DNA of 64,000 nt from Verrucomicrobiota bacterium (lineage in GTDB: Bacteria; Verrucomicrobiota; Kiritimatiellia; RFP12; UBA1067): positions 6,550-70,549 of the forward strand of contig JAHFSX010000020.1 in the NCBI GenBank assembly GCA_023269675.1, given 5' to 3'. Under the pieces are notes generated by a model. That model searched no databases. It was not told the DNA's origin and was given only the letters and a program-made list of their open reading frames with translations. The stretch's first letter is position 1; the number at the start of each line of letters is the position of its first letter. The translations under genes were made by a program, and so were the position numbers. Positions 1-62,572 of this stretch are shown here, piece by piece.

Positions 1-237
1 CATGATTGTTGTATGCGATGCAAGTTGCTCTTGAACTTGCTCAAACGCTCCGATTTGTCTGTGAAACTCTCCAATAAACTCAGCCCCAAAATCGGGATAT
101 GGATATGAAAGAACGCCCGATATTTCGTCAATGCGACAGGGGACGTTGGACAGAGATACAGACAACCCTTGAAAGTTGCCTCGAAGTGTTCCAAGAGTCG
201 TCGACTGCCATTTCCGTTTTTCAAATAATCCGAACAT
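1..237 (-). CDS. Hypothetical protein, N-terminal 79 codons only (runs off left edge)
   Basis: Own translation of minus strand: ATG at 237-235, open to position 1 (MFGLFEKRKWQSTTLGTLRGNFQGLSVSL...). Absent from ORF track because there is no stop in the window. Lies in a low-GC block. Confidence 0.35.
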   Translation of the reverse strand, partial: MFGLFEKRKWQSTTLGTLRGNFQGLSVSLSNVPCRIDEISGVLSYPYPDFGAEFIGEFHRQIGAFEQVQEQLASHTTIM

Positions 238-275
238 TGTTCTTATCCCTAACGTTGGTGGTGGGGGACGGCGCG

Positions 276-785: not shown

Positions 786-812
786 TTTGAATTTCGATCT
801 TTCAAGTTTTGT

Positions 813-873
813 GGCGAACGTCGGGAATCACCTGTGAGTACTCGAAACAGGTGCATTCCCTTGTTCGCCTTTT
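813..873. other. Long imperfect hairpin between lipoprotein and membrane-protein genes
   Basis: GGCGAAC-gtc-GGGAATCACCTGT-11 nt-ACAGGTGCATTCCC-tt-GTTCGCC, followed by TTTT on the + strand. Confidence 0.4.
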
Positions 874-915
874 GGTTGCTCTATTGTTGGACATGTCTCA
901 CTGTTTGGGCAGAAA

Positions 916-1326
916 CTACTCTCCATCGCTCGCTTGATTCGATACCGCGTTTGTCGCCGGGGTGAAGAAACGGGTCAAATCTTTCTCTGAAGCATCCAAA
1001 AGATACCGAACGTCTGGAATATCGAGGAGTCCGTTTTCGTTTTGCCAGACAGATTGCTCCGGCGATCGTCTCAAAAGGACGCGCCCATTCCACGTGGCTT
1101 CCCAGTGATTCGGGATGTTGTGCTCAATCTCCACGAAGGCTGTGACATACTCGTTCGTTCCGCGTTTGAATAGTGCAAGATCGCGAATGTTGTATACTCT
1201 AACACCCCACTTGCCAAGAATGATCCTCTCTACAGAGGGGGCAAGTTTGACGCAGCTCCGTTGATAAGGCGTCGTCTCGCATCCAGTCAGGATGACGATA
1301 AACAGCATTGCCAGCAGTTGTTTCAT
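916..1326 (-). CDS. Hypothetical lipoprotein
   Basis: 136 aa. N-terminus MKQLLAMLFIVILTGC is a signal peptide with lipobox L-T-G-C. GAGGA sits 6 nt upstream of the ATG. Confidence 0.7.
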   Translation of the reverse strand: MKQLLAMLFIVILTGCETTPYQRSCVKLAPSVERIILGKWGVRVYNIRDLALFKRGTNEYVTAFVEIEHNIPNHWEATWNGRVLLRRSPEQSVWQNENGLLDIPDVRYLLDASEKDLTRFFTPATNAVSNQASDGE

Positions 1327-2133
1327 TCCTTGTCCTCAAAATGGGGCGAACGTTTTCTGGCTGGCTGAGCCAATTGCTGGCTACTGGATCGACCATGCAT
1401 CGACTTTTTCACATATCGGTTCACAAATCAAGTCGTATATGATGCGCGGCATCATGTCCTGACACAATTCATGCTGTTTCCCTATATCAGGGACCTGCGG
1501 CCTAACATGAGACCGGGACGGCCCCGGCTTCGCGGATACGCTCAGCCGGGGCCGTTTTGCATGCTGCGCATGGTGCGCCCCGCGCGTCCCTTCGGGGATC
1601 GGCACAGGCTTTTCGCATTCCGCTCAAAACCCCCGTCACCAAGGCCGGCACGATACACCGCCGTGTCCGCCTCCTCAGCCGCTCCCGGAACCCGACGCCG
1701 CGCCGGTTGCAGCGGTCACGCCAACGCTTCGGCTACTCGCGCCGGGCGGGTACGCCCTTTGTCATGCCCGTTGCCGACGGCGCGCCTGATCGGCAGGCGT
1801 CCGGTCATCCGTTCCTCCTGCCCGGACGCTTCCCCGTTCCCCAGGGTCCCGTCCGCGCCCTCACCGTCCTGTCTGCAATCTCGTGGCTTACAACGCAACT
1901 GCCCTGTCCTTTAGCCATCATCGCGAATACACAGGCGAGGATGATGGCGAAAGGAAGGGCAGCGTTATGAGTCAGCCACTTTACAGATTGCAGAGCAGGG
2001 CCGGTTTGAGTTCGGCGTCCACCGCGGCGGGTGCCGCGAGTGAGGAATCCGGACTCAGTCAGAGCAGACGTTTTGTCACACCTTCCCTGCCCCCGGCTCC
2101 ATCGTCGCCGCCATCCCCCGCTTTCCCTCTCCC

Positions 2134-2160
2134 ATCATGTGAATCATGTAAATCATGTCA
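2134..2160 (+). repeat. Three perfect tandem 9-mers ATCATGTNA upstream of the first gene of the + operon
   Basis: ATCATGTGA ATCATGTAA ATCATGTCA. The last copy ends 25 nt before the ATG at 2186. Confidence 0.9.
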
Positions 2161-2185
2161 AATAACCCCAGAAAGGACCGCCACC

Positions 2186-2473
2186 ATGAACAGCTACGCC
2201 GAAACCACCCTGCGCGCCCTCGCCGCACAGACCCGCCGCACACCCTACGAGATCCAGACCCTTCTGGCGCTCATCGCCCAGCGCGACGCCGAGACCGTCC
2301 CCGAAGGCCGCAAATACGCCCTCGCCAACGGAGGAGAGCCCGCGACCGAAGCGGAACTGACCTACCTCGCCCGCCTCTGCCGCAACTGCCCGCCCATCCC
2401 CGTTGACCGCCCGCCCGATCCGGCCGACTTCAACGACTGGGAAGCCCGCTGCCCCCACGCCGACCACCTCTGA
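2186..2473 (+). CDS. Hypothetical small protein (95 aa)
   Basis: Internal ATG of ORF 1883..2473, preceded by cAGAAAGGaCCGCCaccATG, the same SD context as downstream genes. Third-position GC becomes very high only from 2186 onward. Confidence 0.65.
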   Translation: MNSYAETTLRALAAQTRRTPYEIQTLLALIAQRDAETVPEGRKYALANGGEPATEAELTYLARLCRNCPPIPVDRPPDPADFNDWEARCPHADHL

Positions 2474-2479
2474 CACCCA

Positions 2480-2520
2480 GCGCCCGCCCGTGGGCCAGGT
2501 ACGCGGGCAGAAAGGCCACC
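2480..2520 (+). repeat. Intercistronic hairpin+SD unit, copy R1
   Basis: GCGCCCGCCCGTGGGCcaggtACGCGGGCAGAAAGGCCACC-ATG. Stem GCCCGC/GCGGGC. Starts 6 nt after the upstream TGA. Confidence 0.85.
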
Positions 2521-2724
2521 ATGAACACCATGCTCACCACCCTCGGAGCGCAAGCCGAATTCACCCAGACATGGAACGCCCTGCAGGCTTGGCTGGAGGA
2601 AGTCAACATGCTCGCCCACCGGCACCACCCGAACCGGACCCAAACGCTGGAAGCCGTCAGCATCTCCAAGCACCTGCTCGACAAGCTGGGCAACCAGATC
2701 GACCAAGCCATCACCGCCGACTGA
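2521..2724 (+). CDS. Hypothetical small protein (67 aa)
   Basis: ORF track. High GC3. Preceded by R1 SD. Confidence 0.7.
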   Translation: MNTMLTTLGAQAEFTQTWNALQAWLEEVNMLAHRHHPNRTQTLEAVSISKHLLDKLGNQIDQAITAD

Positions 2725-2728
2725 TCCC

Positions 2729-2770
2729 GGCGCCCGCCCGTGGGCATCGTTCGCGGGCAGAAAGGCCGCC
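2729..2770 (+). repeat. Intercistronic hairpin+SD unit, copy R2
   Basis: GGCGCCCGCCCGTGGGCatcgtTCGCGGGCAGAAAGGCCGCC-ATG. Confidence 0.85.
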
Positions 2771-3157
2771 ATGAAAAAGAGACAGCACACCGTCACCCTG
2801 CCGCCCGCCGAGCCCGAGATCCCCGCCGTCGAACTCGAATCCGCGACGACCCAGCCCGACCGGCACGAGACCGCCACCCGCGAGGAAGCCATGCTGATCG
2901 CCCTCGACTTCGTGCGCAGCTACGCCAACCACTGGGAACAGCCCGCCGCCGAGATCATCACCACCTTCGCGCAGACGGAAGGCGGATACTGCGGCACCGG
3001 CGTCAGCTACGCCTACAAACGCCGCGGCTTCTTCGTGGGCACCTTCGTCACCCTCAGCAAACCCGAGGAAATCCCCGGCGTGTTTTTCTTCCCGTGGGCC
3101 GAAGTCAAAGCCGCCGCCCTCACCGGAGCCGTCCAAGGCGAATTCAACCTCAGGTGA
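2771..3157 (+). CDS. Hypothetical protein (128 aa)
   Basis: ORF track. High GC3. Its first ~17 codons are duplicated at 4583. Confidence 0.7.
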   Translation: MKKRQHTVTLPPAEPEIPAVELESATTQPDRHETATREEAMLIALDFVRSYANHWEQPAAEIITTFAQTEGGYCGTGVSYAYKRRGFFVGTFVTLSKPEEIPGVFFFPWAEVKAAALTGAVQGEFNLR

Positions 3158-3159
3158 CT

Positions 3160-3191
3160 GAGCGCCCGCCCCCGGGCAGACCGGAGCCGCC
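3160..3191 (+). repeat. Intercistronic hairpin+SD unit, shortened variant R3
   Basis: GAGCGCCCGCCCCCGGGCAGACCGGAGCCGCC-ATG. Stem GCCCG/CGGGC. Confidence 0.7.
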
Positions 3192-3737
3192 ATGAAACAC
3201 ACCAACCAAGAGCAAAAGGCGATCGAAGCCGCACGCGCCGCCGAGGATCTTCCCGACGCCGAATATGACGCGATCCGCAAGACCCCAAGCCAACAGCGCA
3301 CCATCCCCCAGCGCCGCGCCCTGCTGGCAAGCGACCTGAAACGCGCCGGCCAGACGTTCGAGGACCGGGAACGCTCCAACGACCTTTACCGCCACTACCT
3401 GAAGACCGGCGACCGCGCCGAGGCCCGCTGGCATGCCCCTTCCCCGCTCCTGACCTCGACCGCCGCGATCCGCCGCGAACTGGTGGAAGCCTGGAAAGAC
3501 CTGACCCAGTTCGACGCTATGCCCTTCGCCCCCCACGTCAGCCATGAACCCAAACGCTGGCTCAAGTCCGAACGCTTTCACCGCCTCATGGAGATCCAGC
3601 GCGAGATCGAGCGCCAAGGCGGAAAAGTGCGGTATGTCCAACGCACCACCCGACAGGAAGCCATCTACGCCCGCATCATCGCTAGCGACCAACCCAAGAA
3701 CAAACACGAACCCCAGCAGATACCGCTGGGCATCTGA
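3192..3737 (+). CDS. Hypothetical protein (181 aa)
   Basis: ORF track. High GC3. Operon context. Confidence 0.7.
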   Translation: MKHTNQEQKAIEAARAAEDLPDAEYDAIRKTPSQQRTIPQRRALLASDLKRAGQTFEDRERSNDLYRHYLKTGDRAEARWHAPSPLLTSTAAIRRELVEAWKDLTQFDAMPFAPHVSHEPKRWLKSERFHRLMEIQREIERQGGKVRYVQRTTRQEAIYARIIASDQPKNKHEPQQIPLGI

Positions 3738-3749
3738 AAGGAAACGACC

Positions 3750-3944
3750 ATGAACGCGATCATCAGTTATTACTCCTACAGTGAGGAAGGACTGAAAAAC
3801 GGGTCCTTCGCCAGCCGCTCGAAATACGGCCTCGGCCTGTTCACCCTGGGCGACTTCGTGGGCATGATCGAGACCGTGCCCGCAGGCTGGACCCAATACG
3901 ACACGGCCACCGCCCAGAGCCTCATCCCCGATTGCTGCCACTGA
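3750..3944 (+). CDS. Hypothetical small protein (64 aa)
   Basis: ORF track. GAAAGGAAACGACC-ATG SD context 12 nt after the previous stop. Confidence 0.6.
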   Translation: MNAIISYYSYSEEGLKNGSFASRSKYGLGLFTLGDFVGMIETVPAGWTQYDTATAQSLIPDCCH

Positions 3945-3949
3945 AAACC

Positions 3950-3980
3950 GACGCCCGCCCGTGGGCATCGTACGCGGGCC
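3950..3980 (+). repeat. Intercistronic hairpin unit R5 (no intact downstream gene)
   Basis: GACGCCCGCCCGTGGGCatcgtACGCGGGC, then a divergent sequence and a C10 tract. Confidence 0.8.
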
Positions 3981-4010
3981 GTCCCGTTATGTCCGTTCAT
4001 CCCCCCCCCC

Positions 4011-4040
4011 AAAAATCCGGCGCGCCCGCGGGGGCGCGCC
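4011..4040 (-). terminator. Rho-independent terminator of the Cys-rich gene
   Basis: GGCGCGCCC-gcgg-GGGCGCGCC 9-bp GC stem, followed on the minus strand by GGATTTTT. Confidence 0.65.
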
Positions 4041-4095
4041 GATCAACCCCGCCGCTCGTCGCGCTAACGTCTCGCGCCGGGTCCCGGCAAACGAT

Positions 4096-4332
4096 TCAAA
4101 GCCCGTGTTTTTTGTAAAGCTCAAGCCGCGTGGGGCACTTGCAGTAACGGGCGCCTCCGAAGGACTCCCTGTAAGGACACCGCGAGCCGGCCGGGCATTT
4201 GATGAAAAGGAGCTCCTTTCCGACATAATAATCGACCGTGCAGATGCATTTCCCGTCGCCCTTAAGGCACGCGAAATCCTTGTCACATCGCGTCGTCGCC
4301 CGCAAAGCCTGTTCGCTCACCTCGATGGCCAT
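4096..4332 (-). CDS. Small cysteine-rich protein (78 aa, 8 Cys), probably metal-binding
   Basis: MAIEVSEQALRATTRCDKDFACLKGDGKCICTVDYYVGKELLFIKCPAGSRCPYRESFGGARYCKCPTRLELYKKHGL. Has an SD-like GGGGGTG, plus its own promoter and terminator. Confidence 0.7.
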   Translation of the reverse strand: MAIEVSEQALRATTRCDKDFACLKGDGKCICTVDYYVGKELLFIKCPAGSRCPYRESFGGARYCKCPTRLELYKKHGL

Positions 4333-4434
4333 AAATCACCCCCGTCAATCACGAGTACAACAACATGTCTGGGCATTGATGTATCTGCAAACCAGAGGCT
4401 CAAAAAACCTGATTTAACCATATGTTTGGCATGT

Positions 4435-4462
4435 ATTATGCGGGGGGGGGTAAAATTGTCAA
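4435..4462 (-). promoter_or_regulatory. Sigma-70-like promoter TTGACA-N16-CATAAT with a C9 tract in the spacer
   Basis: Minus strand reads TTGACA(4462-4457)-attttaCCCCCCCCCg-CATAAT(4440-4435), about 100 nt upstream of the ATG at 4332. Confidence 0.6.
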
Positions 4463-4538
4463 CGGCTTATTTTATACGCCAAGTGCCTGATCGACAAGAA
4501 AGGCGAGTCGCGCGACAACGCCGCGCGGCAGCAAAGCC

Positions 4539-4582
4539 CCGCGCCCGACCGTGGGCCGGGTACGCGGGCAGATCGGACCGCC
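4539..4582 (+). repeat. Intercistronic hairpin+SD unit, copy R6
   Basis: CCGCGCCCGACCGTGGGCcgggtACGCGGGCAGATCGGACCGCC-ATG. Confidence 0.8.
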
Positions 4583-4738
4583 ATGAAAAAGAGACAGCAC
4601 ACCGTCACCCTGCCGGCAGTCGAGCCCGAGCCCGCCCTTTCTTTTCGCCCCCCAAAACGGTGCGCCTGCAGGGGTTCGCCATACTCGTTTGGATGGCTTA
4701 TAAACAGGTTATGCGCACACACACCAGAAGTAAACTAG
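4583..4738 (+). pseudogene. Truncated duplicate of the 5' end of gene 2771..3157
   Basis: ATGAAAAAGAGACAGCACACCGTCACCCTGCCG is identical to 2771-2803 (MKKRQHTVTLP). It diverges after ~17 codons and stops after 51 codons. Confidence 0.6.
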
Positions 4739-4814
4739 TTCTTGCCGGAAGACTGACCTCGAGTAAGTTTGTCTTCAACACCGGTATCTCTTAGGTTATG
4801 TTAAGTAATAGAAA

Positions 4815-5231
4815 TCAAGAAAAGGTGAACAATGCGTTCGAACTGCTTCCACAGATTTTCAACTCCAAGTTTTTAAGAAAATTCATTCCCAAGATCATAG
4901 AGTTGTTTGCCATTTTTACATTAGCAGGAGGGCCAAACTGCACACTTCCATTAACCCAATATATCTTTTTATGGCCAACGAACCTGCTGACAGCAAAAAG
5001 CACATCAATGCTATTCGACCCATTATTAGGCGATGGTAAACCGACCACGCCAGCCCATTGTGTCTGAATATGGTTATACGGAGTACAAGAAAAAAAAACC
5101 GTTTCTTGAAAGTAACTAACGGCAACAGGTTTTGACGTGTTATATGTGCTTGGAAGACAGGCGATACTCAATCGTATAGGAGCAATAGTATATTCGCTAG
5201 TCCTTAAATTCACACTCAACTTTTTAAACAT
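4815..5231 (-). CDS. Hypothetical protein (138 aa), second gene of low-GC cassette; possible degenerate retropepsin-like fold
   Basis: Start chosen at MFKKLSV because of GGAGAGAACG-ATG. The C-terminal motif ILGMNFL resembles the (I/L)LG(M/R)(D/N)(F/L)L motif of clan AA aspartic peptidases. No D(T/S)G triplet is seen. Confidence 0.55.
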   Translation of the reverse strand: MFKKLSVNLRTSEYTIAPIRLSIACLPSTYNTSKPVAVSYFQETVFFSCTPYNHIQTQWAGVVGLPSPNNGSNSIDVLFAVSRFVGHKKIYWVNGSVQFGPPANVKMANNSMILGMNFLKNLELKICGSSSNALFTFS

Positions 5232-5275
5232 CGTTCTCTCCGATTCCCGCCACGCCAACACCCCAGAATAATACC

Positions 5276-6232
5276 TTAAAGACCAGCATTCGTTACGTAA
5301 CAATCTTTGGTTGGTTTCAATTCTGTTCTGTCCAACTTAATAAATAATTGGCTCCAATCGGGCGCAGATTCTATGATACCCGCTTCCGTTACTGCTACGA
5401 CACTACCCTGATATTTTTTACATATGTCTTTCGTCCGATTACGTTGCCACCATAAAGCACCCATATCCGCAGGAGAGTGTTGGTCAAAAAAGACTCCATT
5501 AAATGATGAGTCAGTTCTCCATTCATCAAAGTCACTCAGGGAAGTCGCTATGTGACCGTCTGCCATTTGTTTAATCTGTGATGCGTAAAAAAGCGCTATC
5601 GATTTTCGCGAGGAAACAAAAACGCGACGTCTGATAGCTTGTTGTTCTTGGTGGTCTTCTTCGAAAGACAACTCGGCCGTCATTTTCTCGTCTTTAGTAA
5701 AGATTACCGATACAAAGTGTAAGGGCTCTCGGTCGCCGATGTTGATAACAACGCCTTTATCTGGGTGAGATAGCAATTTTTCTGCAAACGGATTGCCAGC
5801 AGCATCTTTCATGATCCTGGTCGAAGATGTAACAAGAAATCTGAATGAAGGTTCACTCAGACGTTCTTCGATCAGTTGAAGCGCCCTCTTTGTAAGAAAA
5901 ACGTCCTTGTGGAATGAGCCCACGTTTAAGAACAGAAAACTGTTTGGCTTGGAAAGACAATTTTCAACGTAGGCGGTTCTCTCTTCAGGGCCTTCCAGTT
6001 CAATCCTCAACTCATTTCCTTCAGCGAGTTCATTCGATCGAAGCTTGGACTCAATCTTATCCCAGTCGCTATCTGTTTTTGGAGAAAGATTGATTTTCCG
6101 ACGTTCAAAAAAGACGCTATATTTTTGTGCCGATGGCTCGGTAACCCTTTTTGACGAACTTCGCTGAAGCACGCGCACAAAGCCTTCTAGCTTCTGGCGA
6201 TAACAATCGATCTCCATCATGCGTAACTCCAT
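5276..6232 (-). CDS. Hypothetical protein (318 aa), first gene of low-GC cassette
   Basis: ORF track. Strong SD GAGGAGGGAGTC-ATG. I recognise no family. Confidence 0.7.
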   Translation of the reverse strand: MELRMMEIDCYRQKLEGFVRVLQRSSSKRVTEPSAQKYSVFFERRKINLSPKTDSDWDKIESKLRSNELAEGNELRIELEGPEERTAYVENCLSKPNSFLFLNVGSFHKDVFLTKRALQLIEERLSEPSFRFLVTSSTRIMKDAAGNPFAEKLLSHPDKGVVINIGDREPLHFVSVIFTKDEKMTAELSFEEDHQEQQAIRRRVFVSSRKSIALFYASQIKQMADGHIATSLSDFDEWRTDSSFNGVFFDQHSPADMGALWWQRNRTKDICKKYQGSVVAVTEAGIIESAPDWSQLFIKLDRTELKPTKDCYVTNAGL

Positions 6233-6310
6233 GACTCCCTCCTCTCGAATTCCAGTCGCAACTATCCTAGCTGTCCTGCCGAAGAGGCAACGTCATCTTC
6301 ATGCGGGGAT

Positions 6311-6340
6311 AGAATATCCCCCCCCGTGCTTCGAATGCAA
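6311..6340 (-). promoter_or_regulatory. Sigma-70-like promoter TTGCAT-N18-TATTCT with a G8 tract in the spacer
   Basis: Minus strand reads TTTTTTTTg-TTGCAT(6340-6335)-tcgaagcacGGGGGGGGa-TATTCT(6316-6311), about 80 nt upstream of the ATG at 6232. Confidence 0.55.
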
Positions 6341-6780
6341 CAAAAAAAACCAGCTTCATAATGTTGCCCATAGATGGAAACGTGCTTATGAAGAAGTGTG
6401 TGCCGGAAATAGTGGCATTGTTGTGTAAGTCTTGTGTGGTGAGTGTTGCGGATCAACAATTGTACTGTTTAAGGCATAACAGTAGTCATAATCTCTCTCA
6501 ACATGCCGTCCCTTTCCAGACATCCTCCGCCTTATCGGCAGGCGTTATTGAGAATCTCCGATTGACAACAGAACCGTAGCAAACTTTACTCCCCTGCTTC
6601 AAGCGTATATTTTGGTGTTTTTTCCCCAGGGATTGATACCGAATTGAATAGGTGAAGTTCCTATAGGTCGGAGGGGTGGCATACAAATCTGTTGATCTGA
6701 GTAGAGGGTGATTAGGGGGACGTATCACGGAAAAACGGACAAACAGGTTAGCTAATCCGTCCTCTCCCCCCCCCATACCG

Positions 6781-6814
6781 CACTAACGCAATAACGCACT
6801 AACGAACTTCTTCC
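6781..6814 (-). repeat. AT-rich octamer array at gene 3' end (island copy 1)
   Basis: + strand CACTAACG CAATAACG CACTAACG AACTTCTTCC. Encodes the tail KKFVSALLR* of the ASCH gene. Confidence 0.85.
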
Positions 6815-7247
6815 TCACTTCCCCGTCCACCGCCCACACGCCGAGAAATCCCTTGGCCGCGACGCCCCGCGCGCACAACACCGGCCGTTCCAGCTCCCAC
6901 GCCACATCGCCCATGTACCACGGGTCGGCCGACGCGGTCAGCGCCGAAACCACATGGATACCGCACACCACCTGCCCGCACCAGGCGCGGCACTCGTCAT
7001 ACCCCGGAAAGCGCACCGCCGCGCCGAACCGGTCCGCCACCCACAGGCTGCCCGCGCACCAGTCAGAAAAGCTGAGGTTGTTGGAAGCGTGCACGAGGTA
7101 GAGGCCGGGCGGCACGCGGAAACTCCGGTTCTCCACCGTCTTCAGCCCCGCCCGGATCAGCAGGCCCCAATGCGCCTTCACCGTGAACGCCCGTAGTCCT
7201 TTCCGCTCGAAGTTCGGCGTCCGGCGTTGAATGTCCGACGTTCGCAT
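6783..7247 (-). CDS. ASCH-domain protein (154 aa)
   Basis: LRAFTVKAHWGLLIRAGLKTVENRSFRVPPGLYLVHAS matches the ASCH pattern (xxSIRQPWAxLIxxGxKxIENRSW...IHAS). Start set at MRTSD with GGAGGGAGAGCAA-ATG. Confidence 0.75.
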   Translation of the reverse strand: MRTSDIQRRTPNFERKGLRAFTVKAHWGLLIRAGLKTVENRSFRVPPGLYLVHASNNLSFSDWCAGSLWVADRFGAAVRFPGYDECRAWCGQVVCGIHVVSALTASADPWYMGDVAWELERPVLCARGVAAKGFLGVWAVDGEVRKKFVSALLR

Positions 7248-7497
7248 TTGCTCTCCCTCCGTCCCCAGCCGTTTGAATGTTGCCGATTGCCGATTGCTGA
7301 TTGCTGTCCTCCGTCCTCTGTCCTCCGTCTTCACTCCCCATCCCGTCCGACTGATCGACGCCGCGCCAGTCCTTTTCCCAACAAACGCACGCCGCATCAC
7401 TCGCCTCTATCAACCTTTCGCCGCGCGGCAGGCACATCCCCGCCGGCCACATCGCCCCGCACGAGCAGAACGACCCGCACTCGCGGCAAAGTTTCAT
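7063..7497 (-). CDS. Possible small Cys-rich ORF (MKLCRECGSFCSCG...); extent uncertain
   Basis: ATG lies 13 nt after the stop of 7511..7864. The N-terminal 45 aa look protein-like. The ORF then crosses heptamer repeats and overlaps the ASCH gene out of frame by 185 nt. Confidence 0.25.
   Translation of the reverse strand: MKLCRECGSFCSCGAMWPAGMCLPRGERLIEASDAACVCWEKDWRGVDQSDGMGSEDGGQRTEDSNQQSAIGNIQTAGDGGRANANVGHSTPDAELRAERTTGVHGEGALGPADPGGAEDGGEPEFPRAARPLPRARFQQPQLF
7282..7333. repeat. Two adjacent tandem heptamer arrays
   Basis: GCCGATT GCCGATT GCTGATT, then GCTGTCCTCC GTCCTCT GTCCTCC GTCTTCA. The minus strand reads GGAGGAC-like SD repeats. Confidence 0.8.
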
Positions 7498-7510
7498 AAC
7501 GGCACCGTCA

Positions 7511-7864
7511 CTATGAAATCGAGTCGAAGAAGTCGGCTGACCGCTTGGCCTCTTTCATCTTTTTGCCGCCGAGCGGCATGAGACCGCTGTTCTGCAAAAG
7601 CCAGACAAGGCCGACATTCAACTCTTGCGTATAGAAGTGCGCGAAAGCTTCGCCACGCTCCGCCGCCCGCTCTTCAAATTTCCGGTTACAGGATTCTTTG
7701 CAGGTAATGAATGGTTCAAACGTGTCTCCAACCTTGTCGCCGCCGGTAGGGGGGAACCACACTATATCGGCTTCTTTCGCGTCCGTGACGTGCCTGCCGC
7801 ACACATCGCATACGGCCGCCAGACCGGTTTTCCCGGACGCAAAAAACATCATCTTGATTCCCAT
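7511..7864 (-). CDS. Hypothetical protein (117 aa)
   Basis: ORF track. High GC3. Contains a CDVCG...CKESC motif. Confidence 0.6.
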   Translation of the reverse strand: MGIKMMFFASGKTGLAAVCDVCGRHVTDAKEADIVWFPPTGGDKVGDTFEPFITCKESCNRKFEERAAERGEAFAHFYTQELNVGLVWLLQNSGLMPLGGKKMKEAKRSADFFDSIS

Positions 7865-7893
7865 AACTCACATCGTTCCTTTCATTCTGAGCT

Positions 7894-8301
7894 TCACTCA
7901 GGCCGCTCCACATAGTAGTCAACGCCCTCGCGCAGACTACAGACCACTGGTGGCAACCGGACCGACTCGCAAAACAGCACCACAGCCGCCACGCACCGCC
8001 GCAACACCTCATGATCCTGATGCTCTCCCTCGACGGTCGCCACCACGCTTGCGCGTGTGGCAAACAGCCACGCGTCCGGAATTGCTACACCTGCCGCCTG
8101 TGCCCGATACAGGTTGTGCGGCCGTGTGCAGAGATCCAGCCAGCGCGCCACCGGTTCATCGACCTCCCGCGCGCAGACCGCCGCCCGCTCATAAAGCTCC
8201 CGGTCCATCCGCACTTTCGTGTGCCGCTCCACCCGTCGCACGGCCAGCGCCCGTTCGATCATTTCGCGCGAAGTGATCCCCTTGAGTCTTTTCGCCTTCA
8301 A
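7894..8301 (-). CDS. Hypothetical protein (135 aa, TTG start)
   Basis: ORF track. GGAGGACGGCGAAT-TTG. Confidence 0.6.
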   Translation of the reverse strand: MKAKRLKGITSREMIERALAVRRVERHTKVRMDRELYERAAVCAREVDEPVARWLDLCTRPHNLYRAQAAGVAIPDAWLFATRASVVATVEGEHQDHEVLRRCVAAVVLFCESVRLPPVVCSLREGVDYYVERPE

Positions 8302-8346
8302 ATTCGCCGTCCTCCGGCCTCAGTCTTCTGACCTCATCCCTCTCCC

Positions 8347-8386
8347 CACTAATGCACTAATGAACTGACGAACTAATGAACTTCTC
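8347..8386 (-). repeat. AT-rich octamer array at gene 3' end (island copy 2)
   Basis: CACTAATG CACTAATG AACTGACG AACTAATG AACTTCTC. The stop of 8373..8600 lies inside it. Confidence 0.9.
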
Positions 8387-8600
8387 TCGCCTTCCCCTGC
8401 AGATCCACCGCAAACCGGCCCTTGGCCAGCGTCAGAAAAACGTCCGGCTCGCAGTTGCAGACCTGACCGGAATTCACGGCGCACCAGAAATCATGCTGCA
8501 CATGACAGTCGCTTTTCCGGTCGAGGCAAGAAACGTCGAACACCTGCCGAAAACCGAGGACCATCCGTTCCTGATACGATAACCGCGTTTTAACAGACAT
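8373..8600 (-). CDS. Hypothetical small protein (75 aa)
   Basis: ORF track. GAAAGGAGTACGGCG-ATG. Ends ...EVH*. Confidence 0.6.
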   Translation of the reverse strand: MSVKTRLSYQERMVLGFRQVFDVSCLDRKSDCHVQHDFWCAVNSGQVCNCEPDVFLTLAKGRFAVDLQGKAREVH

Positions 8601-8643
8601 CGCCGTACTCCTTTCGCTGTCTTCCGTCCTCCGTCCCTAATCC

Positions 8644-8683
8644 CACTAATGCACTAATGAACTAACGGACTAAGGAACTTCCC
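8644..8683 (-). repeat. AT-rich octamer array at gene 3' end (island copy 3)
   Basis: CACTAATG CACTAATG AACTAACG GACTAAGG AACTTCCC. Confidence 0.9.
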
Positions 8684-8804
8684 ACTTCTCTTTCTCCGGA
8701 TCGTCCGCCTCGACTCCGGTCTCGCCTCTGAACGCCCACCATGTCCGTCCCGCCGCTACGGCGATCAAGCACACGAGCCACACGAAATCGGCAACAGTTC
8801 TCAC
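8670..8804 (-). CDS. Possible 44-aa single-TM peptide (GTG start)
   Basis: Own translation: VRTVADFVWLVCLIAVAAGRTWWAFRGETGVEADDPEKEKWEVP*, with AAGGAG 11 nt upstream. Preferred over the Arg-rich track ORF 8662..8856. Confidence 0.35.
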   Translation of the reverse strand: MRTVADFVWLVCLIAVAAGRTWWAFRGETGVEADDPEKEKWEVP

Positions 8805-8853
8805 GGGCGTTCAATCTCCTTCGCGTCTTAGCGCCTTCGCGATAGACACCTCC

Positions 8854-8893
8854 CACTAATGCACCAATGAACTAACGAACTAATGAACTTCTC
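8854..8893 (-). repeat. AT-rich octamer array at gene 3' end (island copy 4)
   Basis: CACTAATG CACCAATG AACTAACG AACTAATG AACTTCTC. Confidence 0.9.
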
Positions 8894-9227
8894 CCCCCCG
8901 TTTCAAATAACACATGTGCCAGATCGGATGATAATTACCGGCCGCCTCGTCGCCGTCCAGCAGCACCACCAGCCGCCCGGAACGGCCGCCCGTGATCACG
9001 CCCGGCCGGCCGTCGAACTCGACCCGCCGCCCGACCGTCGCCGGCACGCCGTAGGCGTTCCGGATATATTCGAGACCCTGCGCGGCGACCTGCGCGCGTT
9101 CACACGTTTTGCAGGTCACCTCCATATCCGAGCCGGGGACAACCACCTGGACGCCGGCCCGCGCGCGTCCGCAGAGCGTCATGCCCGCAGGGCCCGCGGC
9201 ATGGTTCACAAAACGGTAACCGCTCAT
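8880..9227 (-). CDS. Hypothetical protein (115 aa)
   Basis: Internal start MSGYRF, chosen for GGAGGTAATT-ATG. Ends ...GGEVH* inside the octamer array. Confidence 0.6.
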   Translation of the reverse strand: MSGYRFVNHAAGPAGMTLCGRARAGVQVVVPGSDMEVTCKTCERAQVAAQGLEYIRNAYGVPATVGRRVEFDGRPGVITGGRSGRLVVLLDGDEAAGNYHPIWHMCYLKRGGEVH

Positions 9228-9361
9228 AATTACCTCCTGCAGATCGGGTAAACCGCCGCGCAGGGCCGGATCGGACCTGTGAGACCGGTCCCCGCGCGGC
9301 TTTCCGGAACATCCGGAAATCAACTGCCGTCCAAGGCGTTCACCACTCTCCCGCATTGCCG

Positions 9362-9393
9362 CACTAATGAACTATGACACTAACGCCCTTCTC
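9362..9393 (-). repeat. AT-rich octamer array at gene 3' end (island copy 5, degenerate)
   Basis: CACTAATG AACTATGA CACTAACG CCCTTCTC. Confidence 0.75.
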
Positions 9394-9658
9394 CCCCGTC
9401 TCCGGCGCTCGGGACAGCCGGACCGCGCGGCAGCGGCAACGAGGAGGGGAGGGGAGCCGGCGCCTCATTCTCCAGCCATTGCCTGACATCCGCGGTGCAG
9501 AACACGACCACGGACGACCGGCTTTCCGGCACCGGCTTGCGCGCCCGGATGGCCCCGGCCCGCGCCAGTTCCAGCAGCCGGTTGCGCGGCAGCCCGTACA
9601 GCGCCGTCACGCACTCCGCCGTCCCCCACAGCGGCTCCATCTGTATCACGACGGTCAT
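9380..9658 (-). CDS. Excisionase/AlpA-like helix-turn-helix DNA-binding protein
   Basis: PLWGTAECVTALYGLPRNRLLELARAGAIRARK...VRQWLE fits the HTH_17/Xis pattern. Its start overlaps the upstream RHH stop (ATGA). Confidence 0.6.
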   Translation of the reverse strand: MTVVIQMEPLWGTAECVTALYGLPRNRLLELARAGAIRARKPVPESRSSVVVFCTADVRQWLENEAPAPLPSSLPLPRGPAVPSAGDGGEGR

Positions 9659-9846
9659 TCTGGCCCCGCGATCTGATCGATGAGATCACGCCGGGATACA
9701 AATTCGGTCAAGATGAACTCGAATTGCCCGGACCGCGACCTTTTCGCCACGAAGCGAACGTCATCAAGTGCCTTAACCAACTTCGTCGGCAAAGACACAG
9801 TGACCTGTGATTTTTCTTCACGTACCCGTTTGGTTGTCTCACTCAT
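9655..9846 (-). CDS. Ribbon-helix-helix (CopG/Arc-like) protein
   Basis: 63 aa. SQVTVSLPTKLVKALDDV is the typical RHH beta-strand/helix signature. Confidence 0.65.
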   Translation of the reverse strand: MSETTKRVREEKSQVTVSLPTKLVKALDDVRFVAKRSRSGQFEFILTEFVSRRDLIDQIAGPE

Positions 9847-9862
9847 TGGTCTAGTGTAAGTA

Positions 9863-9941
9863 ACTGTGATACAGTAATCAAATAAAATAGTTTTACCTTT
9901 TTTCTAAATACAGTACCCCAACTTCCATTAAATTTAGTACA
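9863..9941. promoter_or_regulatory. AT-rich divergent control region with repeated TACAGTA/TAGTACA boxes
   Basis: ACTGT-gat-ACAGT palindrome (9863-9875). TACAGTA at 9870-9876 and 9909-9915. TAGTACAAT at 9935-9943 resembles a -10 for the + gene. Confidence 0.45.
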
Positions 9942-9961
9942 ATAGCGCCCTCGAGGTATCT

Positions 9962-10195
9962 ATGAGCACAAAAGCAAAAAAGTCAAATACGACCCAAAGG
10001 TCGAAAGATTCCACCCAGGTCAGCATCACGTTGCCCACGGAGCTGCTCGAAAAAATCGATGCCATCTGCGCGGCCAAGGTCAGAACCAGATCCAACCTGA
10101 TGGCGATCATACTGGCACAGGCGCTCGCTCAGCCAGCAGCGCCGTCCGCCTCGGCCCCCGCGGCCGGCAACGTGGGCACCGGCGTTGGCAATTAG
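9962..10195 (+). CDS. Ribbon-helix-helix (CopG-like) protein
   Basis: 77 aa. TQVSITLPTELLEKIDAI parallels the RHH motif of 9655..9846. GAGGT SD. Confidence 0.65.
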   Translation: MSTKAKKSNTTQRSKDSTQVSITLPTELLEKIDAICAAKVRTRSNLMAIILAQALAQPAAPSASAPAAGNVGTGVGN

Positions 10196-10539
10196 TGCCT
10201 TTCAGCGCAATGTTTACACGGAACGACACTAAGTTGCTTCCGCGCGAGATCGCGGAAACAGCGTGCTGTTCCGTCCGCCAAGGAGCGGTCCGAGCGATCC
10301 CTTGTGGCTATGCGAGGCACGTTTCCCAAAACGGTCCGGGTAAAACGCCGGTCACCGGGCCCCGGCCAGGCCTCCCCGGCCGAAGTTATTTGTCGCGGGT
10401 TTTTTACCCGCGCTACCCCTCAAAACGGTATGGCAAAGGTATGACAAACAGGCTTCAAATATATCAAATCGGTACTGAAAAACGTCACTTTTTGACGCTT
10501 TTTCATCAAAAAAACCTCATTTTTGGTCAAAAACGCGCC

Positions 10540-10572
10540 TTGTCGCGGGTTCGAATCCCGTCCTCCCCGCCA
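10540..10572 (+). other. Orphan tRNA/tmRNA 3'-end fragment (T-arm, acceptor 3' strand, CCA); putative attR
   Basis: GCGGG-TTCGAAT-CCCGT-CCTCCCC-G-CCA. The same architecture as a tmRNA/tRNA 3' end. No complementary GGGGAGG 5' acceptor strand or other tRNA arms upstream. Confidence 0.7.
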
Positions 10573-10586
10573 TTCTTTTTTTAGAA

Positions 10587-10618
10587 CAGGTCACCTTCAC
10601 CGGTGGCCTGTTTTTTTT
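10587..10618 (+). terminator. Rho-independent terminator after the tRNA-like fragment
   Basis: CAGGTCACC-ttcacc-GGTGGCCTG followed by T8. Confidence 0.8.
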
Positions 10619-10638
10619 GTGGCGCGCGCCGGAAGTTT

Positions 10639-10668
10639 TTGACCGGCGTCGCGGGTTGCGGGTATACT
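10639..10668 (+). promoter_or_regulatory. Sigma-70-like promoter TTGACC-N18-TATACT (uppP)
   Basis: TTGACCGGCG...GTATACTG, 15 nt upstream of the ATG at 10683. Confidence 0.5.
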
Positions 10669-10682
10669 GCACGCCACGCAAC

Positions 10683-11474
10683 ATGACTTTACTTCAAACC
10701 ACCATCATCGCCGTTGTCGAGGGCTTGACGGAATTCTTGCCCGTGTCGTCCACCGGACACATGATCATCGCCCAGAGGCTCATGGGCGTCGACGGCACGC
10801 TCGACGTGGTCAAAGCGTTCACGGTCAACATCCAGTTCGGGGCGATCCTGTCGGTCGTCGTGCTGTACCGGCGGCGCTTTTTTCAGACCTGGGATTTTTA
10901 CTGGAAACTGCTGGTCGCCTTCGTGCCGGCCGCGGTGATCGGGTTCCTGTTGAGCGGTTTCATCGACCGCCTGCTGGACAACGTGACGGTGGTGGCGCTG
11001 ATGCTGGTGGCGGGCGGCGTGTTCATGCTGTTTGTGGACCAGTGGTTCACCCGTCCCGCAGAGGACCAGGCCGTGGACTGGAAGCGGGCGCTGAAGATCG
11101 GCTGCTTCCAGTGCGTGGCCATGATCCCGGGCGTCTCGCGCTCCATGTCCACGATCGTGGGCGGGATGTCCACCGGGCTCTCGCGGCAGAACGCGGCAGA
11201 ATTCTCGTTCTTTCTGGCCGTGCCGACCATGGCGGCCGCGGCGGGGTATAAGCTGCTGAAAATCATGACTGACCCGGCCCTGAGCGCCACGGTGTCGGAC
11301 AACCTGATGACCTTGCTGATCGGCAATGGGGTGGCCTTCCTGGTGGCCCTGGCGGCGATCCGGTGCTTCATCGGCTTCCTTGCCCGACACGGCTTCAAGG
11401 CCTTCGGCTACTACCGCATTGTGGTCGGCGGCGTGATTCTGGCCCTGGTGCTGCTGGGCAAGATTCAGCGCTGA
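10683..11474 (+). CDS. uppP: Undecaprenyl-diphosphate phosphatase
   Basis: MTLLQTTIIAVVEGLTEFLPVSSTGHMII... and ...PGVSRSMSTIVGG are BacA/UppP signatures. Multi-TM. Confidence 0.9.
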   Translation: MTLLQTTIIAVVEGLTEFLPVSSTGHMIIAQRLMGVDGTLDVVKAFTVNIQFGAILSVVVLYRRRFFQTWDFYWKLLVAFVPAAVIGFLLSGFIDRLLDNVTVVALMLVAGGVFMLFVDQWFTRPAEDQAVDWKRALKIGCFQCVAMIPGVSRSMSTIVGGMSTGLSRQNAAEFSFFLAVPTMAAAAGYKLLKIMTDPALSATVSDNLMTLLIGNGVAFLVALAAIRCFIGFLARHGFKAFGYYRIVVGGVILALVLLGKIQR

Positions 11475-60130: not shown

Positions 60131-60218
60131 GGCAGAAACTCCGTTTTGAAAGATGTGGGCGGTATTAAAGCACAATGGGGAAGGTGAGGGGAAGGAGAGA
60201 GTTGTGCAGTGCATGAGC

Positions 60219-60341
60219 GGGTTAGTTCATGAGTTCATTAGTGCGAAGAGGTGTAAGCGCCCGCCGTGCGAGGCTGGATTTCCCTGGAAGCAACTCATGA
60301 ACTCATGAACTAGCGCACTAAGGCACTAATGAACTTCTTCC
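60219..60341. repeat. Inverted pair of CACTAATG-type octamer arrays flanking a 46-nt GC-rich core
   Basis: GGTTAGTTCATGAGTTCATTAGTGCG ... CAACTCATGAACTCATGAACTAGCGCACTAAGGCACTAATGAACTTCTTCC. Same motif as the island arrays. Confidence 0.85.
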
Positions 60342-60342
60342 C

Positions 60343-62546: not shown

Positions 62547-62572
62547 GGCGAAAGACGGGGAGTGAAACGCCC

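Follow-up and report, generated by a model that had tools for sequence, protein, structure and literature searches.

Octamer arrays at gene boundaries as a candidate interspersed repeat of a Kiritimatiellia clade

Octamer arrays of the minus-strand gene island

The DNA analyzed here is a stretch of 64,000 nucleotides (the window), which SmpB assigns to the same Kiritimatiellia clade as the related genomes compared below. It harbors an island of minus-strand open reading frames (ORFs) and five tandem octamer arrays (Table 1). We found all five where a preliminary description had placed them, in a single orientation and far beyond chance. In searches of the window, a 30-nt consensus with at most three mismatches gave 3 matches (0.00 expected) and a two-unit pattern gave 17 (0.27 expected), while six arrays with at least three AGTKC cores at period 8 were observed as compared to 0.02 in shuffles. 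One copy is ~40 nt long and consists of a purine head (GGR-GAAGTT), three to five CRTTAGTK units, and a G-rich tail. The unit, an AGTKC core plus 3 nt, is repeated with a period of 8, reads MACTAAYG on the opposite strand, and is not palindromic; six of its positions are fixed, and K and R alone are free. A logo of 170 copies showed K and R split 50/50, the remaining positions conserved at ≥88 to 100% through unit 3, and GGR at positions -3 to -1. The typical array has 4 units (32 bp, ~3 helical turns), with a range of 3 to 12 across copies. Such strict conservation at six of eight positions, with the other two left free to vary, implies a putative partner that acts in trans and recognizes the sequence. 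A copy sits with its head against an ORF boundary; we call it T oriented when it lies on or just after a stop codon, and N oriented when it directly precedes a start codon or includes one (…CTAATGAACTTC).

Table 1. Positions of the octamer arrays and accompanying repeats in the window.
Feature	Position	Strand	Sequence or context
Array 5	9362..9393	-	GAAGGGCGTTAGTGTCA-TAGTTCATTAGTG; degenerate, a 1-nt deletion breaks the period
Array 4	8854..8892	-	GAAGTTCATTAG TTCGTTAG TTCATTGG TGCATTAG TGGG
Tail of array-4 insertion	8805..8853	-	period-8 CGCGAAGG/CGCTAAGA repeats
Array 3	8644..8682	-	stop of 44-aa membrane ORF 8670-8804 (…WEVP*)
Array 2	8347..8385	-	stop of 75-aa ORF P5 (8373-8600, …REVH*)
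Array 1	6781..6812	-	GAAGTTCGTTAG TGCGTTAT TGCGTTAG TGCGG; ends ORF 6783-7247 (…KKFVSALLR*), different frame
Companion repeats	7280..7329	-	(GGAGGAC R)x3 then (CAATCRG)x4, transcript strand
Inverted pair (T…N element, ~137 nt)	60206..60342	-	directly after TGA of EEP-family gene 60343-61101

Direct reading of the sequence confirmed a TAG at 8-nt intervals along the transcript strand, and thus in all three frames; the same is true of TAA on the opposite strand. The proposal of a three-frame stop therefore holds at this level, and the arrays appear to supply the working stop codon. Not every gene of the module ends in this way, as had been claimed: only 5/9 minus-strand ORFs end in an array, the others being those that end at 9655, 7894, and 7511 and a Cys-rich ORF starting at 7497. 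Nor are the arrays limited to the module, because the inverted pair adds two further copies, a T arm at 60292-60337 and an N arm at 60208-60243, separated by a 48-nt spacer. The statement that the genes end in different frames was mostly wrong. Relative to the head, the ends EVH*, EVH*, EVP*, and EGR* are read in one frame (GAA GTT CAT TAG), and the gene ending at 6783 is the only one of the five to use another.

Array 5 holds the stop (TAG 9382-9380) of an HTH_17/excisionase-like ORF (9380-9658), and array 4 provides that of ORF 8880-9227 (…GGEVH*). All 14 homologues of the latter gene end with …IYLKDGA or …IYLKRE, and 0/14 carry the array-encoded EVH tail; at this junction, the genes of the relatives overlap (GGGGGATGAAGAC). 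Array 4 and its tail form one insertion of ~99 nt, and the tail gives a Shine-Dalgarno sequence (SD; GAAGGAG) to the 44-aa ORF starting at 8804. The 24-nt core of this tail is found with 96% identity in 7 other Kiritimatiellia loci. A G-rich, SD-like segment indeed follows each island array, as initially noted, in the form of GGGAG, GGAGGAC, or CGCGAAGG repeats, and the combination recurs in relatives. The companion repeats precede the ORF that starts at 7247 as SD-like purine repeats, and GGAGGAC arrays also come after T arrays at four other loci (L350, L339, L347, and L354). The intergenic DNA of the window and of the relatives is also filled with further short tandem repeats, whose periods are 6, 7, and 9 nt.

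As RNA, the single island arrays were unstructured (z between -1.2 and +0.3), while the 137-nt pair folded as a hairpin with a dG of -62.6. T…N pairs gave z scores of -6.25 (the 137-nt pair), -5.0, and -5.0, and in the pair at L274, the AUG lies inside the stem. An intrinsic terminator, i.e., a GC-rich hairpin with a U tract, was not supported: the arrays are unstructured, and the minus strand between 6783 and 9846 contained no terminator-like site. No Rfam family matched at gathering score across the whole window.

Placement, distribution, and insertion of the arrays

Related Kiritimatiellia MAGs and metagenomes contained >250 copies. A strict 21-nt pattern, for which ~4 chance matches are expected in 596 Gb, matched 63 genome loci, almost all in MAGs of the Kiritimatiellia clade, and 93 metagenome loci. 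The arrays are conserved in other genomes, contrary to one of the conditions that the preliminary description gave as refuting it. Look-alike arrays occur in Longimicrobium (AGTGC-N3), Bacteroidota (AGTTCATT), and Beggiatoaceae (TAACTGA); the T…N arrays of Longimicrobium surround a MITE-like element.

A pattern search showed that the arrays are tightly tied to gene ends. According to gene calls from a crude, home-made codon-usage caller, under which about one-third of the copies were not assigned to a nearby boundary, 40/96 copies of a first set had their T head at -28 to +18 nt relative to the stop of a gene in the same orientation, and 34 copies of an independent second set obeyed the T rule, with offsets of -13 to +2 (18 copies), +12 (8), +20 (4), and +28 (4). 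By the same calls, the first in-frame ATG relative to N heads was at -9 in 7/19 copies and at +3 to +5 in 6/19, and start codons near N heads often had no SD. The upstream ORFs are real genes, including RmlD, GuaA, PFK, ThiC, AdoHcyase, ROK, and FGGY, with Pfam matches in 18/20 of those tested. Close inverted pairs are nearly always T…N, facing outward and spanning the intergenic region (8:0, 18:0, and 9:3). Few copies lie between divergent genes, and 5-7 adjoin upstream stops in N orientation.

Related islands were compared, as the preliminary description had proposed. Array 3 is the sole island array shared at the same junction with relatives, being orthologous in L175-177 and L181-182; at this junction, L178-180 carry a different repeat, CAGTAGG. 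The syntenic islands lack arrays 1, 2, 4, and 5. Array 1 is missing after the orthologous gene in L175, and array 5 at the same junction in L175 and L178, while P5 and array 2 are both missing in all relatives. Arrays 1, 4, and 5 were inserted without an accompanying gene, and in L181, P6 is missing after the array. In addition, alignment showed that the 137-nt pair is missing in 4 syntenic relatives with conserved flanks. The relatives' smpB loci contained no array in the 231 kb searched, as compared to five in 2.6 kb here. Because four of the five island arrays and the 137-nt pair are missing from syntenic relatives, these alignments show the island and 60.2-kb copies to be derived insertions, with arrays 2-4, which have one common K/R pattern, as duplicates of the ancestral array 3.

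No clear target-site duplication was seen at three resolved junctions. The interiors between T and N arms are nonhomologous and 5-380 nt long, and most copies are single arms. Since our searches found neither a mobilizing enzyme nor a target-site duplication nor a conserved interior, the evidence for a mobile element is the comparison of filled with empty sites. The K/R patterns are diverse (51 patterns among 75 perfect arrays), a diversity at odds with a recent burst from a single master copy. At the rmlD junction, 5 MAGs retain both the T and the N array, with a replaced interior between the two. Such conservation across species argues for a function and against passive junk.

Comparison with known repeats

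A close parallel is offered by the TAACTGA heptamers, direct repeats in intergenic DNA that are known from Beggiatoaceae, Cyanobacteria, and some Bacteroidetes (MacGregor 2015, PMC4679880). They occur in sets of 2-6 with stops in all three frames and no predicted RNA structure, end ~1 nt before start codons or overlap the upstream stop, usually precede genes without an SD, and have a patchy, strain-specific presence (PMC4679880). The octamer arrays share each of these traits, i.e., short direct repeats, all-frame stops, placement next to starts or over upstream stops, lack of an SD, no predicted structure, and patchy presence, together with a related AACT-rich core (TAACTGA versus GAACTAAY). 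In contrast to the heptamer, however, the unit is an octamer (CRTTAGTK, period 8 instead of 7), and the element has a defined head (GGRGAAGTT) and a G-rich tail. The reverse orientation after stops, rare in Beggiatoa, is the commonest here; outward-facing inverted pairs are frequent, and the host phylum is different.

Similar to the REP/BIME/REPIN elements of Proteobacteria, the arrays are extragenic, have many copies, and are biased toward gene 3' ends. Both singlets and inverted doublets are found, the latter folding into long hairpins; copies are present or missing between close relatives and have fixed positions, presumably due to a reader protein. In contrast to REP, a single octamer array is a direct repeat with neither palindrome nor fold, and its head is GAAGTT with no GTAG. 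Mobilization by a RAYT, as for REP, was considered but not supported: most RAYT homologues of the clade have classic GTAG and GC-rich palindromes at their flanks, and an octamer array was present at 1/6 RAYT-selected loci. At that locus (L395-398), the array lies 130 nt upstream; the five others have GTAG palindromes instead. At L045, inverted octamer arrays belonging to a sister subtype lie on either side of a RAYT-like gene, whose NF047646 match (E 1.5e-19) is below cutoff. There is no RAYT in the 64-kb window.

The 137-nt T…N element resembles a MITE in its terminal inverted repeats and in its filled versus empty sites, but it has no clear target-site duplication, and neither interior nor length is conserved across copies. 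MIRUs, the subject of Supply et al. 1997, are tandem repeats inside operons that are oriented with the genes and reportedly overlap both neighboring genes, at the stop codon of the one upstream and the start of the one downstream. The octamer arrays are likewise oriented and overlap the upstream stop; however, MIRU units are 46-101 bp long and encode small ORFs, whereas ours have 8 nt and stops in every frame. Like attC sites, the arrays mark the 3' ends of several small ORFs in one orientation, often overlapping the stop, and bound gene presence and absence, whereas most octamer copies follow housekeeping genes. On direct reading, no imperfect inverted repeat and no R''/R' or RYYYAAC…GTTRRRY cores were present, and the island arrays do not fold; a reading as integron attC sites was not supported. 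Searches for an integrase or recombinase gave no match in Pfam (0/20 ORFs at positions 276-10195) or PHROGs (0/10 island ORFs). Last, Geobacter metallireducens has four tandem octamers (GTTGCTYN), usually as opposite-strand pairs at variable distance (Aklujkar 2009, PMC2700814). These octamer/heptamer sites occur in dozens of copies, attract IS insertions, and were read as global-regulator sites (PMC2700814). Our arrays are alike in their tandem octamers, opposite-strand pairs, and multiple copies, yet the unit sequence is different, and no relation to stop or start codons was reported for Geobacter (PMC2700814).

A proposed boundary repeat and its alternatives

With moderate confidence, we interpret the arrays as a lineage-specific, oriented interspersed repeat, an octamer-array element of one Kiritimatiellia clade. 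The best reading is a boundary repeat of the REP/MIRU/TAACTGA kind that provides a frame-independent stop and a spacer. Whatever the frame of the upstream ORF, an inserted copy would end its translation, replacing the native stop and adding 3-9 residues such as EVH or KFVSALLR. From the sequence, we infer effects on translation and transcripts: the copy would separate formerly overlapping, translationally coupled genes by an unstructured, AU-rich spacer, after which SD-like purine repeats would start the next cistron. A protein that reads DNA or single-stranded RNA in 8-nt steps could be the partner, and copying might run by transposition in trans or by microhomology or gene conversion at GGRGAAG.

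It is possible, although unlikely, that the arrays are instead a selected RNA-level intercistronic module. After a cistron, a T copy would then stop translation in any frame and offer an unstructured, C-poor platform for landing or processing, and an N copy would serve as an SD-less, A-rich translation leader with the AUG. The long-range T…N hairpin would mask the downstream start until the ribosome finishing the upstream gene melts the T arm, thereby coupling the two, with S1, a cold-shock protein, or RNase E as the reader. Stops adjoin or fall inside the T arm, within ribosome-footprint distance, and the AUG lies inside the N head or ≤5 nt away, often without an SD. Such a module would also fit the folding of the pairs (z -5 to -6, with the L274 AUG inside the stem), the stop-rich and SD-rich purine repeats that come with T arrays on the sense strand, and the conserved rmlD-junction arrays; the same idea has already been put forward for the TAACTGA repeats (PMC4679880). 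However, the five island arrays have neither a partner arm nor structure, no G-U asymmetry favors the transcribed strand (the sense strand was better in 5/11 cases), and permuting the partner arms does not consistently lower their complementarity. Moreover, 5-7 N-oriented copies adjoin upstream stops, and the placement rule, with the head toward the nearest gene, holds symmetrically on DNA whatever the gene polarity. The latter would rather suit DNA iterons at gene ends, i.e., a roadblock, insulator, or nucleoid-organizing site for a host protein binding cooperatively in 8-bp steps, which we nevertheless regard as quite improbable. MetJ binds tandem 8-bp metboxes, and omega binds 7-bp heptads. 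The strict 8-bp period, the six fixed and two free positions per unit, and the typical 32-bp array of 4 units agree with such sites, as do the comparable paired octamers of Geobacter metallireducens, taken as regulator sites (PMC2700814). In contrast, the arrays have a nonpalindromic unit and overlap coding ends instead of promoters, heads within a few nucleotides of stop or start codons are left unexplained by DNA binding, and no candidate binding protein was identified. The neighboring RHH proteins, which the preliminary description had suggested as possible readers, are not supported in this role: L178-L180 keep RHH_5 and the order of the genes and have no such array, and elsewhere arrays follow housekeeping genes at >70 loci. 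As operator iterons of these proteins, the arrays have the tandem 7-8 bp repeats (period 8, 3-5 units) but neither a promoter/operator location nor co-occurrence with RHH genes; the divergent RHH promoter region (9847-9961) contains a different palindrome, ACTGTGATACAGT.

The suggestion of cassette junctions was borne out in part. Small genes would be gained and lost via exchange at ~40 nt of identity or by a site-specific recombinase, with all-frame stops keeping the junctions viable. The array-P5-array arrangement as compared to one array in relatives, the lack of four of the five arrays in syntenic islands, the loss of P6 in L181, and the near-identical direct repeats of arrays 2-4 are in line with this, and so are the exchange of T…N interiors between species, the MITE-like element of Longimicrobium, and the IS elements at fixed distances from the analogous Geobacter sites (PMC2700814). 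However, attC-defining features (inverted repeat, GTTRRRY core) are missing, none of the 20 ORFs tested matched a recombinase, arrays 1, 4, and 5 arrived without any gene, and most array-bearing genes are single-copy housekeeping genes instead of cassettes; we find recombination linkers very doubtful. Functionless, microsatellite-like slippage products of independent origin in AT-rich gene-end DNA are highly improbable. Variable unit number (3 to 12), the abundance of other short tandem repeats (periods 6, 7, and 9 nt) in intergenic DNA, and the CAGTAGG repeat at the array-3 junction of L178-180 would be expected from slippage. This reading is largely refuted by a head, unit, and tail that are the same in >250 copies from many MAGs and keep six positions of each unit invariant, by discrete insertions with defined ends, by the strict orientation and position rule, and by arrays kept at orthologous sites.

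A wider version of the boundary-repeat interpretation, which we consider doubtful, is that arrays and stop-plus-SD purine repeats (GGAGGAC, TGAAGGA, and CGCGAAGG) form a self-propagating "junction grammar," which one conserved factor binding nucleic acid in 8-nt steps would read. The element would cap every ORF boundary that it reaches, and the look-alikes of Longimicrobium, Bacteroidota, and Beggiatoaceae would belong to the same system. Such a system would offer stop and start codons in any frame, insulate genes from insertions between caps, and let T…N hairpins couple or uncouple neighboring cistrons, i.e., act as a natural plug-and-play operon adaptor.

For the clade, the octamer-array element means that gene ends are rewritten: native stops are replaced and short C-terminal tails are added (EVH, EVR, KFVSALVH, and SSLVH), while a start codon can be donated by the element (MNF…). 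Consequently, annotation and protein-family alignments of the clade are systematically affected. Overlapping, translationally coupled phage genes would become separated cistrons, and the element marks end points of gene gain and loss. Similar boundary repeats in several other phyla have been unexplained since at least 2009-2015. Hundreds of copies conserved at six of eight positions imply a putative sequence-specific reader, and a reader found in one system could explain a class of bacterial repeats.

Octamer arrays in the minus-strand operon

Reading 6400-9900 on both strands, together with pattern statistics, bore out the five arrays of the preliminary description, all in a single orientation. 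On the minus (transcript) strand, each consists of GAAGTT followed by three to four units CRTTAGTK (K = G/T, R = A/G) and then GGGRG. The 30-nt consensus with up to three mismatches was matched 3 times against 0.00 expected, a two-unit pattern 17 times against 0.27 expected, and runs of at least three AGTKC cores at period 8 formed six arrays against 0.02 in shuffles. By these pattern counts, chance does not explain the five arrays. Because the period is 8, TAG appears in all three frames and, on the complementary strand, so does TAA. The arrays are not island-specific, as they also occur at 60 kb in the window, where two more copies face each other, and in other genomes.

The observation is thus real; however, two of its details were overstated. 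An array had been placed at the stop codon of every gene, while just five of the nine ORFs on the minus strand are closed by one; no array terminates the ORFs that end at 9655, 7894, and 7511 or the Cys-rich ORF that starts at 7497. The genes had also been said to end in different frames. In fact, four of the five share a frame relative to the head (GAA GTT CAT TAG; EVH*, EVH*, EVP*, EGR*), the exception being the gene ending at 6783 (KKFVSALLR*). The reported G-rich, SD-like segment 3' of every array is genuine. The sense strand 3' of arrays that follow a stop codon carries purine-rich, SD-like tandem repeats, and such combinations of array and companion repeat recur at loci from other genomes (L350, L339, L347, and L354). 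There, entire intercistronic spacers are made of concatenated 7-8-nt repeats, each carrying a stop codon, an SD-like motif, or both (e.g., TGAAGGA and CTGAGGACGGAGGA).

The minus-strand module has the appearance of an early operon in a prophage-like island. Further island ORFs match solely PHROG families of unknown function, and the GC content is ~0.59 in the island versus ~0.67 in the remaining window. The SmpB protein is 93-94% identical to those of Kiritimatiellia MAGs, and comparison of the island insertion site showed synteny with relatives confined to the smpB segment. The AT-rich segment adjoining the island has a composition unlike both island and host, and the ORFs tested in 1-5000 gave no Pfam match. 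The Cys-rich ORF, which is conserved, has no stop until ~180 nt into the following gene, with GGAGGAC and CAATCRG repeats within the read-through stretch; repeat insertion may have cost it its stop. Cumulative GC skew falls to ~10-11 kb and then rises (1-11000 versus 11000-64000), a turn that coincides with the boundary between the island's minus-strand genes and the host's plus-strand genes and could stem from gene orientation or from a replication feature. Across the whole window, Rfam at gathering thresholds gave no match, and ARAGORN found neither tRNA nor tmRNA.

Positions of arrays, repeats, and neighboring features in the window
Feature	Position	Strand	Remark
Array 1	6781-6812	minus	
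Array 2	8347-8385	minus	
Array 3	8644-8682	minus	
Array 4	8854-8892	minus	
Array 5	9362-9393	minus	
Inverted pair of arrays	60208-60243 and 60292-60337		mutually facing; directly 3' of the stop of an EEP-family gene
Element formed by the inverted pair	60206-60342		137 nt
GGAGGAC companion repeats	7306-7329, also after arrays 2 and 3	sense	
CGCGAAGG companion repeat	after array 4	sense	
RHH_5 repressor gene	9962-10195	plus	faces operon beginning with a small ORF
HTH_17/excisionase-like ORF	9380-9658	minus	next after the operon's first small ORF
Divergent promoter region	9847-9961		between two small regulator genes
75-aa ORF	8373-8600	minus	
Cys-rich small ORF (MKLCRECG…)	7063-7497	minus	also in L175 and L178
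AT-rich segment	5000-6700		GC 0.43
318-aa ORF	5276-6232	minus	in the AT-rich segment; no Pfam match
Hairpins with tandem-repeat arms	17323-17386, 19065-19124, 40100-40169, 62566-62610		intergenic

A clade-wide, oriented element at ORF boundaries

Each array is a copy of an oriented octamer-array element that occurs clade-wide. The strict pattern ACTAAYGNACTAAYGAACTTC, for which chance predicts roughly 4 matches in 596 Gb, was found at 63 genome loci, nearly all from one Kiritimatiellia clade, and at least 12 of the matches lie in the complete chromosome OW818680.1. A 29-nt pattern matched 93 metagenome contigs. In a logo of 170 copies, GGR occupied positions -3 to -1 and only K and R varied within each unit, each at ~50/50; the remaining six positions were at least 88-100% conserved through unit 3 and 71-81% conserved in unit 4. 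A typical array has four units. More generally, the unit is an AGTKC core plus three nucleotides, and sister arrays in which the triplet differs (AGTKCTAA, AGTGCGGG, and others) were found alongside. Deep cross-phylum conservation of the strict family was rejected, since MAGs labeled Lentisphaeraceae, Akkermansia, and Verrucomicrobia belong, by SmpB identity (74-94%), to the same Kiritimatiellia clade. A looser search returned look-alike arrays of AGTGCGTT in Longimicrobium and of AGTTCATT in Bacteroidota; its more than 119 raw matches are near chance expectation, yet genuine tandem arrays are present, concentrated in these two groups.

Overall, the arrays are sparse. None was found in 231 kb of the relatives' smpB loci, so that five in 2.6 kb represent a real local enrichment; comparable operon runs exist elsewhere (L350 and L339). 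At another locus (L316, 1-360), octamer arrays joined end to end fill almost all of 360 nt, and at least three types of unit are represented (GCATTCGC, MACTAAYG, and AACTTTAG). Downstream of them lie a RAYT-like gene and an ORF fragment that, judged by eye from its C-terminal translation, we take to be HsdS-like.

Genes were called with a simple codon-usage caller built for this analysis; in a Pfam check, 18 of 20 ORFs upstream of arrays were ordinary enzymes (RmlD, GuaA, PFK, ThiC, AdoHcyase, ROK, and FGGY kinase among them). Two placements were found, on or just after a stop codon (T) and, in reverse orientation, at a start codon (N). In one set, 40 of 96 head-bearing copies have their start at -28 to +18 nt relative to the stop codon of a gene in the same orientation. 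An independent metagenome set provided 34 copies with the head at such a stop: in 18, the stop ends between 13 nt before the head and 2 nt into it, and in the other 16, it falls within the array (frame 0, 8; frame 2, 4; frame 1, 4). The element is inserted at ORF boundaries and supplies a stop codon in any frame. In N copies, the head adjoins the start of the downstream gene; among 19 cases, the first in-frame ATG is that of the last unit in seven (…CTAATGAACTTC, M-N-F…) and lies 3-5 nt past the head in six. So the head faces the nearest gene irrespective of that gene's polarity. Consistent with this rule, close inverted pairs are nearly always T…N with heads outward; three counts gave 8:0, 18:0, and 9:3. 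Copies between divergent genes are few, and about one-third of all copies could not be assigned to a gene boundary, contig ends and missed gene calls being part of the reason.

Gain, persistence, and local copying

The syntenic islands L175-L182, up to 78-80% identical at the nucleotide level, have an array only at the junction after a 40-44-aa membrane ORF. In L181 and L182, this array has the same unit order as arrays 2-4 of the window; in L178-L180, the junction is occupied by another repeat rich in stops, CAGTAGG. The EVH tail is missing from all 14 homologs of the gene at 8880-9227 (69-92% identical), which end in …IYLKDGA or …IYLKRE. Where the relatives' genes overlap (GGGGGATGAAGAC), the window has a ~99-nt insertion made of array 4 and a tail repeating CGCGAAGG at period 8, which provides a new SD. 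The element separates genes that once overlapped. The 75-aa ORF and array 2 are missing from all relatives, so that the window has array-ORF-array where relatives have just one array. They also lack arrays 1 and 5. One K/R pattern is common to arrays 2-4, whereas elsewhere 75 perfect four-unit arrays show 51 patterns, none occurring more than five times, which indicates that arrays 2-4 are local copies of one another.

The inverted pair at 60 kb is absent from four syntenic relatives, although these share the stop codon and the intergenic sequence downstream of it. Five MAGs show that arrays can also be kept: at their rmlD junction, the 77-320-nt interior was replaced, but the arrays on both sides of it are still there, T with …EKFVSALVH* and N with the ATG of the next gene. 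At L140 (1175-1458) and L120/L139, T…N interiors contain unrelated inserts, one an ATCCACAGATGGACACAGAT-type repeat; another is presumably a fragment like a four-helix-bundle (23S rRNA intervening-sequence) protein gene. Insertions may be especially frequent between the two arms.

Candidate identities and related repeats

The arrays had been suggested to be iterons for the neighboring RHH proteins, but relatives have RHH genes without arrays and arrays occur at housekeeping genes, which speaks against operators of this kind. The island's divergent promoter region carries a different palindrome, ACTGTGATACAGT, with two more TACAGTA-like half-sites; together, these are probably the real RHH operator. 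An integron attC was discarded for want of an inverted repeat, core sites, and, among the 20 ORFs tested at 276-10195, an integrase, and IMG/VR, searched with phage origin in mind, gave no match to the strict pattern and 9 raw matches to the looser one. Intrinsic terminators were rejected, as no terminator-like site was found in the operon; as RNA, the five island arrays showed no significant fold (z -1.2 to +0.3). T…N pairs can fold: the window pair forms a long hairpin (dG -62.6, z -6.25), and the L101 and L274 pairs reach z ~-5, with the downstream AUG within the stem in L274. However, the transcribed strand gained no advantage from G-U pairing, being the better one in 5 of 11 cases, and true partner arms were better matched than permuted arms only sometimes. 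RNA-specific pairing was therefore rejected; pairing is real for some pairs, with selection at the RNA level no more than a possibility. The four hairpins listed in the table resemble T…N pairs in arrangement, with different units (CCAAGAACG/GTGAACTTA, GATTAA/TAATC, and CAACGCT) and, in some, subsequent terminator-like T-runs.

A RAYT-mobilized REP was promising from L045, where a gene matching REP-associated tyrosine transposase (NF047646, E 1.5e-19, below cutoff; PF01797) sits between inverted octamer arrays of a sister subtype. RayT-annotated proteins like this one form a large family, and only one of six RAYT-selected loci had an array nearby; five were flanked instead by classic GTAG plus GC-rich palindromes. 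This idea was downgraded, and the arrays are probably not the enzyme's cognate REP. At L400, L403, L406, and L408-409, RayT-annotated genes of ~320 aa (a Y1 transposase domain and a ~150-aa C-terminal extension) are flanked by GTAG plus GC-rich palindromes such as GTAGGGGCGACCGGCAGGTCGTCC and a 24-nt tandem repeat, which suggests a canonical REP-RAYT system in these Kiritimatiellia-like genomes. A MITE would fit the filled versus empty site, but there is no clear target duplication or conserved interior, and most copies are single arms. In Longimicrobium, a separate MITE-like element is enclosed by T…N arrays: five MAG loci (L004, L052, L082, L093, and L113) share a homologous ~200-nt element that has terminal inverted repeats of its own (TTTGTCATCCTGAG…CTCAGGATGACAAA) and is flanked by CGTTAGTG/CACTAACG octamer arrays, which face outward at a constant spacing of 210-245 nt. 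Since IS elements also lie at fixed distances from analogous octamer sites in Geobacter (PMC2700814), such arrays may be preferred landing sites.

Possible resemblances of the arrays to boxA, the RNase E RN|WUU site, the consensus RNAP pause, the CspB heptamer, USS, and FRT were given no weight. A literature search for the array sequences themselves gave no match. Among described phenomena, the intergenic TAACTGA heptamer repeat of Beggiatoaceae, Cyanobacteria, and Bacteroidetes comes closest; it provides stops in all frames and ends ~1 nt before start codons or overlaps upstream stops; it has neither SD nor RNA structure, its presence is strain-specific, its function is unknown, and S1 or Csp binding has been put forward (PMC4679880). 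Our literature search found no follow-up. REP/BIME/REPIN, MIRU, and the Geobacter octamer sites also share some traits with the octamer arrays. The present arrays differ in having an 8-nt unit, a defined head and tail, a location mainly after stop codons, and outward-facing pairs. We infer that this element acts as a spacer or insulator and has a sequence-specific reader; the way it is copied is likewise a matter of inference. It belongs with the known short tandem repeats that abut gene boundaries, as a variant of its own.
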